From NCBI RefSeq assembly GCF_001677475.2, contig NZ_CP015229.1: 64,000 nucleotides of DNA. The stretch is one strand, 5' to 3'. A model generated the notes under the pieces. The model saw only the letters and a list, made by a program, of their open reading frames with translations, made no database searches and was not told the DNA's origin. The position numbers were made by a program, and so were the translations under genes. This stretch comes from Escherichia coli (GTDB lineage: Bacteria; Pseudomonadota; Gammaproteobacteria; Enterobacterales; Enterobacteriaceae). Shown here piece by piece: positions 44,755-54,337 of the stretch (position 1 is the stretch's first letter; every line of letters begins with the position of its first letter).

Positions 44755-46476
44755 TTACAAACCCTGCTTAAACTGGTAATAACGCCCCTGTCTGGCAAGC
44801 AGTTCTGCGTGAGTACCTTGCTCAATAATTTGCCCGTTGTCCATCACTATTATTTTCTGGAAACGAGAGAGTCCGCGAAGTCGATGGGTGACCATTAACA
44901 CCGTTTTCTCATGCATCATTTCTGCAAGCAATTCAAGGATCTGACTTTCGGTTGTGGCATCTAAGCCTTCTGTAGGTTCATCCAGCAATACCAGCGGCGC
45001 ATCATGTAACAGCGCACGGGCGATAGCCAGACGGCGCAGTTCACCACCGGAGAGCTGGCGTCCGCCTTCACCTAACCAACTGTTGAGACCTGCATCCTCG
45101 AGCAGCTTCTCCAGACCAACGCGACGTAAGATCTCCGCCAGAGCCTCATCACTACTGCCAGGTGAGGCGAGTAACAGATTATCACGCAGCGTGGCGCTAA
45201 ACAGATGCACTCGCTGTGGCACAACGCTGATGGTCTGTCGTAGAGTCGCTTCATTCAGACTGGCTATGGGGCTATCGTTAAGCAAAATCTCGCCCTGTTG
45301 CGGGTCCCATGCGCGGGTCAGCAGTTGTAACAGTGTTGATTTGCCGCATCCGGTTCGCCCGAGAATCGCTATATGTTCCCCGGCGTTTACCTGAAGAGAA
45401 ATCCCTTTAAGTGCCTGTTGGGATTGCTCCGGATAAGTGAACTGAACATCCCGTAATGTCAGCGAAACGCGATCGGCAACACGAGTTTGGGTATCAGGGA
45501 AGGTGACCTCCGGTTTTTGATCCGTTAAATCAGTGATCCGAACGGCAGAGGCAATGACTTGCCCCAGATGCTGAAATGCACCCGTTACTGGTGCCAGTGC
45601 TTCAAACGCGGCTAACGCGCAGAAGACAAACAGGGCAATTAACGCGCCGGGTTGAGCATTGCCGCCAACGCCGCCAGACGCCATCCACAGCATCAGGATC
45701 ACCGCTAACGCGCCAATGAGCAGCATTATCGCTTGCGACAATGCGGTTAGTTCAGATTGACGGCGTTGCGCTTCCAGCCATTGAATTTCTGTATTCTCTA
45801 GTTGCGTGCGATAACGATCGCTGGCACCAAAAATGGTCAGCTCAGCTTGCCCTTGCAGCCAGGCCGTCAGTTGTTGGCGATACTGCCCGCGAAGATGAGT
45901 CAGATTTTGCCCGGTGCTTTTTCCCGCACGATAAAACAGCGGTGGCATCAGGAAAAGCGTCAGTAACATAATGCCGCCCAGCGTAAAGGCGAGGGTGAAA
46001 TCAAGGAAACTTAACCCGACTGTCACCACCATAATCACCACAAAAGCGCCCACCAGCGGCGAAATAACGCGCAGGTAAAGATGATCGAGCGTATCAACAT
46101 CCGCCACCACGCGGTTGAGCAATTCGCCCTGACGATAGCGCGCCAGTCCGGCAGGGGAGAGGGGTAGCAATTTGCTGAAGGTGTAAATGCGCAGATGCTG
46201 CAACACGCGGAAAGTCGCGTCGTGACTTACCAGACGTTCAAAATAACGCCCGGCAGTACGGGTGATTGCTGCGCCACGCACGCCCGCAGCGGGTAGCATG
46301 TAGTTGAAGCTGTACAGTCCGGCAACCCCCGCAATCGCTGAGGCGGAGAGGAACCAGCCCGAAAGTGTCAACAGACCGATACTGGCGAGCAGCGTGACAA
46401 TTGCCAGCACGATACCAAGACTTAACATCCATTTATGACGTTTATACAGTGCCAGATAGGGTAGCAAAGCGCGCAT
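44755..46476 (-). CDS. cydC: ABC exporter subunit CydC (glutathione/cysteine export, cytochrome bd assembly)
   Basis: 573-aa ORF; N-terminal TMD plus C-terminal NBD (GRTGCGKST, LSGGELRR). Confidence 0.9.
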   Translation of the reverse strand: MRALLPYLALYKRHKWMLSLGIVLAIVTLLASIGLLTLSGWFLSASAIAGVAGLYSFNYMLPAAGVRGAAITRTAGRYFERLVSHDATFRVLQHLRIYTFSKLLPLSPAGLARYRQGELLNRVVADVDTLDHLYLRVISPLVGAFVVIMVVTVGLSFLDFTLAFTLGGIMLLTLFLMPPLFYRAGKSTGQNLTHLRGQYRQQLTAWLQGQAELTIFGASDRYRTQLENTEIQWLEAQRRQSELTALSQAIMLLIGALAVILMLWMASGGVGGNAQPGALIALFVFCALAAFEALAPVTGAFQHLGQVIASAVRITDLTDQKPEVTFPDTQTRVADRVSLTLRDVQFTYPEQSQQALKGISLQVNAGEHIAILGRTGCGKSTLLQLLTRAWDPQQGEILLNDSPIASLNEATLRQTISVVPQRVHLFSATLRDNLLLASPGSSDEALAEILRRVGLEKLLEDAGLNSWLGEGGRQLSGGELRRLAIARALLHDAPLVLLDEPTEGLDATTESQILELLAEMMHEKTVLMVTHRLRGLSRFQKIIVMDNGQIIEQGTHAELLARQGRYYQFKQGL

Positions 46477-49448: not shown

Positions 49449-49874
49449 TCAAATTCTCCCGTCATTATCACCTCTGCTACTTAAATTTCCCGCTTTATAA
49501 GCCGATTAAATGATGAATAAACGCCCCTGGTAATGAATATCTGGCATGTTGTACTAAAAATCGATGTTTTGCTTTGACAATCCCCTGGTGTTTTGCGAAA
49601 ACATTCGAGGAAGAAAAAAACAGTATTCTTATATGCGCATAACCATGCATGTAAATACCATGTTTACCGTGCTAGTGAAATCTACGTATGGCGTGGACAG
49701 ACGCCATTCGTGATGTCGATAGCTGCCACAAGGCAACGGTCTTCTCACCGTAGACCCAGGCATTGCGCGCCGTGAATCTTCATGATTTCGGTCTATCGTG
49801 ACGGGTAGCGACTCTGAACAGTGATGTTTCAGGGTCAGACAGGAGTAGGGAAGGAATACAGAGAGACAATAATA

Positions 49875-50369
49875 ATGGTAGATAGCAAGAAGCGCCCTGG
49901 CAAAGATCTCGACCGTATCGATCGTAACATTCTTAATGAGTTGCAAAAGGATGGGCGTATTTCTAACGTCGAGCTTTCTAAACGTGTGGGACTTTCCCCA
50001 ACGCCGTGCCTTGAGCGTGTGCGTCGGCTGGAAAGACAAGGGTTTATTCAGGGCTATACGGCGCTGCTGAACCCCCATTATCTGGATGCATCACTTCTGG
50101 TATTCGTTGAGATTACTCTGAATCGTGGCGCACCGGATGTGTTTGAACAATTCAATACCGCTGTACAAAAACTTGAAGAAATTCAGGAGTGTCATTTAGT
50201 ATCCGGTGATTTCGACTACCTGTTGAAAACACGCGTGCCGGATATGTCAGCTTACCGTAAGTTGCTGGGGGAAACCCTGCTGCGTCTGCCTGGCGTCAAT
50301 GACACACGGACATACGTTGTTATGGAAGAAGTCAAGCAGAGTAATCGTCTGGTTATTAAGACGCGCTAA
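49875..50369 (+). CDS. lrp: Leucine-responsive regulatory protein
   Basis: ORF trimmed to MVDSKKRPGKDLDRIDRNILNELQKDGRISNVELSKRVGLSPTPCLERV, 164 aa. Confidence 0.95.
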   Translation: MVDSKKRPGKDLDRIDRNILNELQKDGRISNVELSKRVGLSPTPCLERVRRLERQGFIQGYTALLNPHYLDASLLVFVEITLNRGAPDVFEQFNTAVQKLEEIQECHLVSGDFDYLLKTRVPDMSAYRKLLGETLLRLPGVNDTRTYVVMEEVKQSNRLVIKTR

Positions 50370-50409
50370 CACGGAACAGGTGCAAAATCGGCGTATTTTG
50401 ATTACACTC

Positions 50410-50425
50410 CTGTTAATCCATACAG
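50410..50425. promoter_or_regulatory. LexA box (CTGT-N8-ACAG) in the ftsK upstream region
   Basis: CTGTtaatccatACAG read directly; ftsK is recalled to have an SOS-inducible promoter. Confidence 0.55.
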
Positions 50426-50503
50426 CAACAGTACTGGGGTAACCTGGTACTGTTGTCCGTTTTAGCATCGGGCAGGAAAAGCCTGTAACCTGGAGAGCCT
50501 TTC

Positions 50504-53500
50504 TTGAGCCAGGAATACACTGAAGACAAAGAAGTCACATTGACAAAGTTAAGTAGCGGCCGCCGCCTTCTGGAGGCGTTGCTGATCCTTATTGTCCTGT
50601 TTGCCGTCTGGTTGATGGCTGCCTTACTAAGCTTTAACCCTTCGGACCCCAGCTGGTCGCAAACGGCCTGGCATGAACCTATCCATAATTTAGGTGGGAT
50701 GCCCGGTGCGTGGTTGGCAGATACGCTGTTCTTTATTTTTGGCGTGATGGCTTACACCATTCCCGTCATTATTGTCGGCGGTTGTTGGTTTGCCTGGCGT
50801 CATCAGTCCAGCGACGAATACATTGATTATTTTGCCGTTTCGCTACGCATCATTGGCGTTTTGGCGCTCATCCTTACCTCCTGTGGTCTGGCGGCAATCA
50901 ACGCTGATGATATCTGGTATTTTGCCTCCGGTGGCGTCATTGGCAGCTTACTAAGTACTACGCTACAACCACTGCTACACAGTAGCGGGGGAACTATTGC
51001 GCTGCTCTGCGTTTGGGCTGCGGGCCTGACGCTGTTCACCGGTTGGTCATGGGTGACCATTGCTGAAAAACTCGGCGGCTGGATTTTAAACATTCTCACC
51101 TTCGCCAGTAATCGTACCCGTCGCGATGATACCTGGGTCGATGAAGATGAATATGAAGATGACGAAGAGTATGAAGATGAAAACCACGGCAAACAGCATG
51201 AAACACGCCGTGCCCGTATTCTTCGCGGCGCGCTAGCGCGTCGTAAACGGTTGGCGGAAAAATTCATTAATCCGATGGGGCGGCAAACAGACGCTGCGTT
51301 GTTCTCCGGTAAGCGGATGGATGATGAAGAAGAGATTACCTACACTGCACGCGGTGTGGCTGCCGACCCGGACGACGTCCTATTTTCGGGCAATCGTGCA
51401 ACGCAGCCAGAATATGACGAATACGATCCATTATTAAACGGTGCGCCAATTACCGAACCTGTCGCTGTAGCAGCTGCTGCTACCACGGCGACACAAAGCT
51501 GGGCTGCGCCGGTTGAACCTGTGACTCAGACGCCGCCTGTTGCCTCTGTTGATGTTCCACCTTCGCAACCTACAGTAGCCTGGCAGCCTGTACCGGGTCC
51601 ACAAACGGGAGAGCCGGTTATTGCTCCTGCACCGGAAGGTTACCCACAGCAGTCACAATATGCGCAGCCTGCAGTGCAATATAATGAGCCGCTGCAACAA
51701 CCAGTACAGCCGCAGCAGCCGTATTATGCACCTGCAGCTGAACAACCTGCGCAACAGCCGTATTATGCCCCTGCGCCAGAACAACCGGTGGCAGGTAACG
51801 CCTGGCAAGCCGAAGAGCAGCAATCCACTTTTGCTCCACAGTCTACATACCAGACTGAGCAAACTTATCAGCAGCCAGCCGCTCAGGAGCCGTTGTACCA
51901 ACAGCAGCAACCCGTTGAACAGCACTCTGTTGTGGAGCCTGAGCCCGTTGTAGAAGAGACAAAACCCGCGCGTCCGCCGCTTTACTATTTTGAAGAAGTG
52001 GAAGAGAAGCGTGCCCGTGAACGTGAACAACTTGCGGCCTGGTATCAACCGATTCCTGAACCGGTTAAAGAACCAGAACCGATCAAATCTTCGCTGAAAG
52101 CACCTTCTGTTGAAGCAGTATCTCCAGTGGAAGCCGCTGCCGCTGTTTCCCCTTTGGCATCTGGCGTGAAAAAAGCGACACTGGCGACGGGGGCTGCTGC
52201 AACCGTTGCCGCGCCAGTCTTCAGTCTGGCAAATAGCGCTGGACCGCGTCCGCAGGTCAAAGAGGGGATTGGCCCGCAGTTGCCACGACCGAAACGTATC
52301 CGCGTGCCAACTCGTCGTGAATTGGCGTCTTACGGTATTAAGCTGCCCTCACAGCGTGCGGCGGAAGAAAAAGCCCGTGAAGCCCAGCGCAATCAGTATG
52401 ATTCTGGCGATCAGTATAACGATGATGAAATCGATGCGATGCAGCAGGATGAACTGGCACGTCAGTTCGCCCAGACACAGCAGCAACGCTATGGCGAACA
52501 GTATCAACATGATGTGCCCGTAAACGCAGAAGATGCAGATGCTGCGGCAGAGGCTGAACTGGCTCGTCAGTTTGCGCAAACTCAACAACAACGTTATTCC
52601 GGCGAACAACCGGCTGGGGCGAATCCGTTCTCGCTGGATGATTTTGAATTTTCGCCAATGAAAGCGTTGTTGGATGATGGTCCACACGAACCGCTGTTTA
52701 CGCCAATTGTTGAACCTGTACAGCAGCCGCAACAACCGGTAGCGCCACAGCCGCAGTATCAGCAGCCACAACAGCCAGTTGCGCCACAGCCGCAGGATAC
52801 CCTGCTTCATCCGCTGTTGATGCGTAATGGCGACAGCCGTCCGTTGCATAAACCGACGACGCCGCTGCCTTCTCTGGATTTGCTGACACCGCCGCCGAGC
52901 GAAGTGGAGCCGGTAGATACCTTTGCGCTTGAACAAATGGCGCGCCTGGTGGAAGCGCGTCTGGCTGATTTCCGTATTAAAGCCGATGTCGTCAATTACT
53001 CTCCGGGGCCGGTTATCACTCGCTTTGAATTGAACCTGGCACCGGGCGTAAAAGCGGCGCGCATTTCTAATTTGTCACGGGACCTGGCCCGTTCACTTTC
53101 TACGGTGGCGGTGCGTGTCGTTGAAGTTATTCCTGGCAAACCCTATGTAGGTCTGGAGTTACCGAATAAAAAACGACAAACCGTTTATCTGCGCGAAGTT
53201 TTGGATAACGCCAAATTCCGCGATAATCCGTCGCCATTAACCGTGGTGCTGGGTAAAGATATCGCCGGTGAGCCGGTGGTTGCCGATCTGGCGAAAATGC
53301 CGCACTTGTTGGTTGCGGGGACTACCGGTTCCGGTAAGTCTGTCGGTGTGAACGCGATGATCCTGAGCATGCTTTATAAAGCACAGCCAGAAGATGTGCG
53401 TTTCATCATGATCGACCCGAAAATGCTGGAGCTTTCGGTTTATGAAGGCATTCCGCACCTGTTAACGGAAGTCGTTACTGATATGAAAGATGCCGCCAAC

Positions 53501-54337
53501 GCGCTGCGCTGGTGTGTTAACGAGATGGAACGTCGGTATAAACTGATGTCTGCGCTGGGTGTGCGTAATCTGGCGGGTTATAACGAAAAAATTGCTGAAG
53601 CCGATCGCATGATGCGTCCGATTCCAGACCCGTACTGGAAGCCGGGTGACAGTATGGATGCCCAGCATCCGGTGCTGAAAAAGGAACCGTACATTGTGGT
53701 GTTGGTGGACGAATTTGCCGACCTGATGATGACGGTAGGTAAAAAAGTGGAAGAGCTGATAGCACGTCTGGCACAAAAAGCCCGTGCCGCGGGTATCCAT
53801 CTCGTACTGGCAACTCAGCGTCCATCGGTTGATGTTATTACTGGTCTGATTAAAGCGAATATTCCGACCCGTATCGCCTTTACCGTATCCAGTAAGATTG
53901 ACTCACGTACCATTCTTGATCAGGCTGGCGCGGAATCACTGCTGGGTATGGGGGATATGCTTTACTCTGGGCCGAACTCCACGTTGCCGGTACGTGTTCA
54001 TGGTGCTTTTGTTCGCGATCAGGAAGTTCATGCCGTGGTGCAGGACTGGAAAGCGCGTGGTCGCCCACAGTATGTTGATGGCATCACCTCCGACACTGAA
54101 AGCGAAGGTGGCGCGGGCGGTTTCGATGGTGCTGAAGAACTGGATCCGTTGTTCGATCAGGCGGTGCAGTTTGTTACTGAAAAACGCAAAGCGTCAATTT
54201 CTGGCGTACAGCGTCAGTTCCGCATTGGTTATAACCGTGCAGCGCGTATTATCGAACAGATGGAAGCGCAGGGGATTGTCAGCGAACAGGGGCACAACGG
54301 TAATCGTGAAGTGCTGGCCCCACCGCCGTTTGACTAA
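50504..54337 (+). CDS. ftsK: DNA translocase FtsK (1277 aa here; shorter PQ-rich linker than the ~1329 aa recalled for K-12)
   Basis: TTG start [12 protein letters not shown]-terminal membrane domain, long Pro/Gln-rich linker, C-terminal motor (GTTGSGKS) and winged-helix gamma domain. Confidence 0.92.

Follow-up and report, generated by a model that had tools for sequence, protein, structure and literature searches.

The SOS operator of the dinH promoter and the RNA hairpin that follows it in the lrp-ftsK junction of Escherichia coli

The window analyzed here, a stretch of 64,000 nucleotides of Escherichia coli DNA, contains the junction between the lrp and ftsK genes. Many complete E. coli genomes contain the 1-kb stretch around the LexA-like site of this junction with 100% identity and annotate it as lrp followed by ftsK, and the 134-bp spacer between the two genes matches positions 933090-933223 of K-12 MG1655 base for base. 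Throughout, window positions are converted to K-12 coordinates (U00096.3) by adding 882720. The lrp coding sequence occupies positions 49875-50369 of the + strand (164 aa plus stop), according both to a reading of the sequence and to the RefSeq annotation of identical E. coli DNA, and ftsK lies downstream on the same strand (50504-54337; 1277 aa). The TTG start codon of ftsK at 50504 agrees with the RefSeq K-12 start at 933224, and ftsK starts with TTG in 76 of the 81 loci inspected. The FtsK protein encoded here differs from the 1329-residue K-12 protein by 12 substitutions and by a clean 52-residue deletion, located at about position 52720 of the window, after codon 739, in which four 13-residue repeats of the PQ-rich linker are gone. 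At the other end of the locus, a hairpin, GGCGTGGACAGACGCC (49690-49705), is present in the 5' UTR of lrp, together with a strong Term-seq RNA 3' end at 49710 (K-12 932430; 9747 reads) that has an intrinsic-terminator score of 7.37, is not Rho-dependent and falls about 104 nt past the lrp transcription start at 49607 (K-12 932327); the element delimited by these positions (49607-49710) may be a leader attenuator or a small RNA derived from the 5' UTR.

LexA operators follow the frame CTGT-N8-ACAG (CTG-N10-CAG), embedded in the 20-bp arrangement TACTG(TA)5CAGTA, and their heterology index is usually required to fall below about 15, with functional sites lying mostly at or below 13. An earlier note on this DNA, made from the sequence alone, had pointed to a LexA box about 80 bp before the TTG codon of ftsK, and this reading stands in both respects. 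The + strand reads CTGTTAATCCATACAG at positions 50410-50425, with perfect CTGT and ACAG arms, within a 20-mer, TCCTGTTAATCCATACAGCA, that spans 50408-50427 and is assigned to neither strand; the start codon of ftsK is 78 nt from the end of the box and 94 nt from its beginning. The bare CTGT-N8-ACAG pattern means nothing alone, for it is found once in the window against 0.70 expected matches, and at least once in 50 of 100 shuffled sequences, which is the level expected by chance. The case for a LexA operator rests therefore on its matrix score, its position, its conservation and the published literature. For the matrix score, heterology indices were calculated in the Berg-von Hippel form, as used for LexA, on a matrix derived from 17 other E. 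coli SOS boxes (PMC3009722). On this matrix, which was rebuilt and is not the original Lewis matrix, so that our values are approximate, the 20-mer obtains an index of 9.7 in the symmetrized version and of 10.0/11.4 in the one-strand version. Together with the published heterology index of the ftsK box, 9.2, these values are all below the usual cut-off of 15 and leave the identification of a LexA box unrefuted.

The 20-mer is the top-scoring site among the approximately 128,000 positions of the window, and an equally good site appears in only 4% of simulated 64-kb sequences (mean 0.04). Its score on our matrix ranks amid those of accepted sites such as uvrB, dinB, polB and dinG. With the one-strand matrix, however, three intragenic 20-mers come within about 1.5 units of the box, and sequence alone would hence not prove function. 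The other matrix matches in the window (at 44968, 63966, 59526 and elsewhere) were discarded as chance occurrences, being either intragenic or devoid of CTG/CAG arms. The second-best LexA-like 20-mer, TTCTGTAGGTTCATCCAGCA (44968-44987), has an approximate heterology index of 10.85 and an intact CTG-N10-CAG frame; it lies inside an open reading frame that corresponds to cydC by the K-12 offset, has a K-12 counterpart that is not identical and probably matches by chance.

The position of the box relative to mapped transcription starts is that of an operator. Cappable-seq places a start at U00096.2 position 932358, which corresponds to 933135 in the current K-12 version, and to position 50415 of the window, under a 777-bp offset between the two versions that we take to apply here. 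SMRT-Cappable-seq, in turn, reports a start at 933134 (window 50414) for operon b0890, a transcription unit containing only ftsK. This second start is given in v3 coordinates and lies a single base away, which provides independent corroboration of the 777-bp offset. The start of the dinH (ftsK P2) transcript is thus an A at 50415 on the + strand, inside the LexA box and followed by an 89-nt leader, and the 20-mer overlaps the promoter from -7 to +13, with both mapped starts (50415 and 50414) within it. A -10 hexamer, TACACT (50403-50408, + strand), ends 6 nt upstream of the mapped start and is found in 64 of the 65 sequences aligned, with TATACT in the remaining one. The candidate -35 hexamer, GTGCAA (50380-50385, + strand), is located 17 bp upstream of the -10; it matches the consensus at 3 of 6 positions, and we infer this assignment. 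A promoter scan of the window did not call the dinH promoter, its -35 matching at only those 3 of 6 positions. The block AGGTGCAAAA (50378-50387), which contains GTGCAA, is nearly invariant in the 76 box-bearing loci. This conservation exceeds the apparent need of a -35 hexamer with three matches, and the block may be an additional protein-binding site or some further control site that has gone unrecognized.

An alternative promoter, with a -35 TTGATT (50398-50403) and a -10 TACAGC (50421-50426), would start transcription inside the hairpin that follows the box; it was rejected on the grounds that TTGATT is not conserved and that the mapped start is 50415. A weak inverted repeat (50375-50389/50400-50414) was likewise set aside, as its pairing is not conserved. 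Farther upstream, within the lrp open reading frame, Cappable-seq detects another start at U00096.2 position 932153, or window 50210, preceded on the + strand by hexamers that we read as TTGAAG-18-TAGTAT (50173-50210 including the start). This start is likely to be the dispensable upstream ftsK promoter, P1, that has been reported.

According to a review, ftsK is transcribed from two promoters, of which the one within lrp is dispensable and the other, dinH, is essential and an SOS promoter. The dinH/ftsK P2 promoter and its LexA box were reportedly described by Lewis et al. in 1994, Wang and Lutkenhaus in 1998, and Dorazi and Dewar in 2000. For E. coli K-12, the SOS promoter and the box are summarized in later work (PMC4080785; PMC6590174), and the 25-mer ACTCCTGTTAATCCATACAGCAACA, which the window contains at the box, has been published as the SOS motif of ftsK, among motifs that precede genes induced by UV, ftsK being one of them (PMC3009722). 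The site in the window is the same locus as the K-12 dinH/ftsK P2 operator and has the same sequence, the loss of the 52-residue PQ-rich linker of FtsK in this strain being unrelated to it. Furthermore, a published list of genes known to carry an SOS box includes ftsK. Its expression responds accordingly: in RNA-seq experiments, ftsK is induced 1.5-fold by AZT (P = 2e-10) and is expressed at a 1.7-fold lower level in lexA3 cells (P = 8e-17), an early rise is seen under ciprofloxacin, and an ftsK promoter reporter displays expression bursts of the LexA type under the same drug.

In the range of its index and in its response, the ftsK box resembles other SOS operators of intermediate strength. 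The operators of dinB (heterology index 9.4), ydjM (9.0), rmuC (8.8) and polB (13) are also promoter-near CTG-N10-CAG sites in the 9-13 range, and their genes show a modest, lexA-dependent induction like that of ftsK. The ftsK box departs from them in its central bases, TTAATCCATA, which deviate from the (TA)n consensus, and in controlling an essential gene whose induction is among the weakest in the published table. In undamaged cells, LexA bound at 50408-50427 would compete with RNA polymerase for the -10 and +1 regions, cutting initiation by occlusion, and upon DNA damage the RecA-stimulated self-cleavage of LexA would free the dinH promoter. The box is a mediocre match (heterology index of approximately 9-10), and this would result in shallow repression and a small induction of about 1.5-1.7-fold. 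As ftsK is essential, its promoter must remain active under repression.

Conservation was assessed with the Lrp protein as query in one genome per species, which yielded 80 loci from Enterobacterales, in each of which ftsK follows lrp. In 76 of these 80 species the best LexA-like site of the spacer lies at the orthologous place, 37-54 nt past the lrp stop codon. The CTG and TACAG portions of the box are invariant, and its center varies (TTAATCCA, GTAATCCA, TGTATGTA, TTTATGCA, TGAATTTA and others); several species carry better boxes than E. coli, with approximate heterology indices of 6.5-7.6. The exceptions belong to Providencia and Moellerella (loci L055, L056, L057 and L059, at about 2040-2095), in which a 12-13-bp deletion (CGCACT|GCAGTTTC) removes the box and part of the promoter, including the -10 hexamer. 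In these genera, ftsK is found 400-900 bp away from lrp, with unrelated sequence in between, and the lrp-ftsK spacer contains no CTG-N10-CAG. Judging from these spacers, SOS control of ftsK seems to have been lost or moved in both genera.

The pattern of conservation bears directly on whether the palindrome is a LexA site at all. A LexA-like palindrome could arise by chance and be preserved by constraint on the promoter and the initially transcribed sequence, with the damage induction of ftsK being indirect, and such an origin would be compatible with the chance-level frequency of the bare pattern, with the small, 1.5-fold induction and with the fact that the adjacent -10 is equally conserved. 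On the other hand, a site with this matrix score is expected just 0.04 times per window, and the invariance of CTG and CAG amid varying bases is what a LexA site should display. Expression of ftsK depends, moreover, on LexA cleavage, as evidenced by the lexA3 strain (P = 8e-17), and the site itself is listed as a known SOS box, all of which makes a fortuitous palindrome extremely improbable. We conclude, with a probability of roughly 0.92, that the box is the LexA operator of dinH, the main ftsK promoter, a long-described site for which the binding of LexA is taken from the literature.

Immediately after the box, the earlier note had proposed a 10-bp perfect inverted repeat at 50426-50457. The repeat is real, but its perfect portion comprises 9 bp (CAACAGTAC at 50426-50434 and GTACTGTTG at 50447-50455), and the end coordinate was set 1-2 nt too far; a tenth pair, G50425/T50456, does not match as DNA and amounts to a G-U wobble in the transcript. 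The left arm as it had been written, ACAACAGTAC, is absent, the sequence reading GCAACAGTAC instead. In RNA, the repeat forms the center of a hairpin with a 14-bp stem and a GUAA loop on the + strand (50425-50456), which begins 55 nt past the lrp stop codon, corresponds to +11 to +42 of the ftsK leader and shares the last base of the 16-bp core of the box and three bases of the 20-mer. The fold has a predicted free energy of -21.9 kcal/mol (z -4.1) and is backed by covariation. Across 64 distinct sequences, 91% of the cells of the alignment are paired, vs 31-58% for slid controls, compensatory double changes occur in 12 of the 14 stem pairs, and none of 500 shuffles reaches the observed values. 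RNAalifold retains 9 core pairs, which are 97.7% paired. The hairpin alignment contains 116 G-U cells vs a single A-C cell, indicating that the structure belongs to the + strand transcript. A search of the spacer against Rfam at a permissive threshold returned chance-level matches only, and no family for the hairpin.

Past the stem, the transcript continues with a short U-run, UUUU, 3 nt downstream (50460-50463, + strand), which makes for a weak terminator tail. The run is kept mainly in core Enterobacteriaceae and Morganellaceae and lacks conservation outside some families; across species, 4-7 of the 12 nt that follow the core stem are T. A terminator scan of the window did not call the hairpin, its U-tract being too short. 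Several observations link it to the 3' end of lrp. Term-seq detects an RNA 3' end at K-12 933176 (window 50456), on the last base of the stem, in two growth conditions (Adams et al., 2021; PMC7815308), and classifies it as Rho-independent (Rho score 1.03, "No"; PMC7815308). In SMRT-Cappable-seq, which captures full-length transcripts, lrp is monocistronic, and lrp and ftsK form separate transcription units. Lastly, Providencia and Moellerella retain the hairpin and a TTCCGTTTTAG tail about 50 nt after lrp despite having lost the box. The hairpin thus stays with lrp where the box is lost, and most likely ends lrp transcripts. It is hence most likely an lrp 3'-end element, and probably a weak intrinsic terminator, which would end or protect the transcripts that originate at lrp and at the upstream start inside it, keeping lrp monocistronic. 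The suggestion that the repeat could be the lrp terminator is reasonably well backed by the Rho-independent 3' end, the monocistronic lrp transcript and the retention of the hairpin without the box, and is weakened by the poor U-tract and by an intrinsic-terminator score of 1.70 for the 3' end, below the predictive cut-off of 3.0 (PMC7815308). Catalogued Term-seq Rho-independent terminators, and 3' ends catalogued within 5' UTRs (PMC7815308), similarly combine a stable stem-loop, U residues and a mapped 3' end. In the present case there are, by contrast, just four U residues, 3 nt off the stem, the score is lower than the cut-off, and the hairpin follows a stop codon and precedes the next gene, yet is located past the transcription start of that gene, being at once part of a 3' UTR and of a 5' leader.

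The step by which the 3' end arises can be envisaged in two ways. Rather than by termination at the hairpin, lrp transcripts could end, or be cleaved, farther downstream and then be trimmed by 3'-to-5' exonucleases back to the stem, with the hairpin protecting the lrp mRNA. The 3' end does fall at the last paired base and not in the U-run, its score is under the cut-off, and the authors of the Term-seq study ascribe ends that are unscored and Rho-independent to processing (PMC7815308). Yet the end shows no Rho dependence, in E. coli and many of its relatives the stem is followed by a U-run, and lrp and ftsK are transcribed as distinct units; weak intrinsic termination with subsequent trimming would, besides, look identical, so that trimming refines the terminator reading more than it rivals it. 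On balance, true termination at the hairpin appears somewhat favored, and most of what doubt is left goes to trimming back to the stem, which as an account of its own is possible, if rather unlikely.

The dinH start lies 10 nt upstream of the hairpin, and every dinH transcript consequently carries the hairpin in its 89-nt leader. This geometry alters the functional arrangement that the earlier note had envisaged, in which box and hairpin would couple lrp termination with SOS-inducible ftsK expression. With a start at 50415, the hairpin is part of the leader, not an insulator placed before the promoter, and the proposed coupling stays a conjecture. The hairpin can still insulate ftsK from transcription originating at lrp and P1, which would fit the dispensability of P1, but dinH transcripts must read through it for ftsK to be expressed. 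That an essential promoter should act through an element which halts transcripts arriving from upstream speaks against the terminator role.

The place of the hairpin in the leader allows for a different assignment, in which it would be mainly an ftsK leader element, be it an attenuator or a determinant of stability or processing, and the 3' end at 50456 would delimit a prematurely ended dinH RNA of about 42 nt (50415-50456). The proximity of the start speaks for this assignment, as do the listing of the end by Adams et al. under "3' ends upstream of an ORF" (ftsK, -48; PMC7815308) and the conservation of the hairpin, with covariation, even where its tail is not U-rich. Against it, Providencia and Moellerella, whose dinH -10 and box have been deleted and whose ftsK is 400-900 bp off, still have the hairpin about 50 nt past lrp, and lrp is monocistronic. 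Term-seq is blind to the promoter of origin, and roles in the leader and at the lrp end are compatible, but as its main function a leader element must be considered unlikely. A combination of both roles, in which the hairpin is a shared, leaky element that ends lrp and P1 transcripts and attenuates dinH close to its promoter, is a still more speculative proposal, and we think it improbable. Read-through, along with LexA, would then determine how much ftsK is expressed, and the SOS response would in addition give rise to the RNA of about 42 nt (50415-50456), perhaps a functional one. A true coupling could also be imagined in which bound LexA blocks the polymerases that arrive from lrp, making lrp termination dependent on LexA and relieving it during the SOS response. 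Polymerases making lrp and P1 transcripts do encounter the operator, which immediately precedes the hairpin. In unstressed cells, however, LexA is bound and the mapped 3' end, at 50456, is nevertheless downstream of the operator; among the entries listed in a coordinate-sorted excerpt of the 3'-end table, none falls from 932430 to 933176 exclusive of these two, and genera that lack the box still have the hairpin. A LexA roadblock was rejected on this basis as a most improbable arrangement.

The remainder of the ftsK leader contains elements that are more restricted in their distribution or closer to the translation start. A second, small hairpin, GCAGG-AAAAG-CCUGU (50472-50486, + strand), is located on a 15-nt insertion that is found only in Escherichia, Citrobacter, Salmonella, Klebsiella and Enterobacter. 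The Shine-Dalgarno sequence GGAG (50492-50495, + strand) lies 8 nt before the TTG codon, within the conserved ACCTGGAGAG. A predicted CCUGG/CCAGG pairing (50489-50513) encloses both the Shine-Dalgarno sequence and the TTG start and, if the model is correct, could hold ftsK translation down.

The SOS induction of FtsK ties the response to DNA damage to chromosome-dimer resolution and cell division, a connection documented since the 1990s. The dinH/ftsK SOS box is already known. To this background, the present analysis adds a precise map of the -10 hexamer, the transcription start, the operator, the hairpin and the RNA 3' end on the sequence of the window, together with the observations that the lrp 3' hairpin sits inside the ftsK leader and that most Enterobacterales keep the operator, which Providencia and Moellerella have lost. 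The current understanding of ftsK regulation is unchanged by these results, and the map should be of use for the annotation and the engineering of the lrp-ftsK junction.
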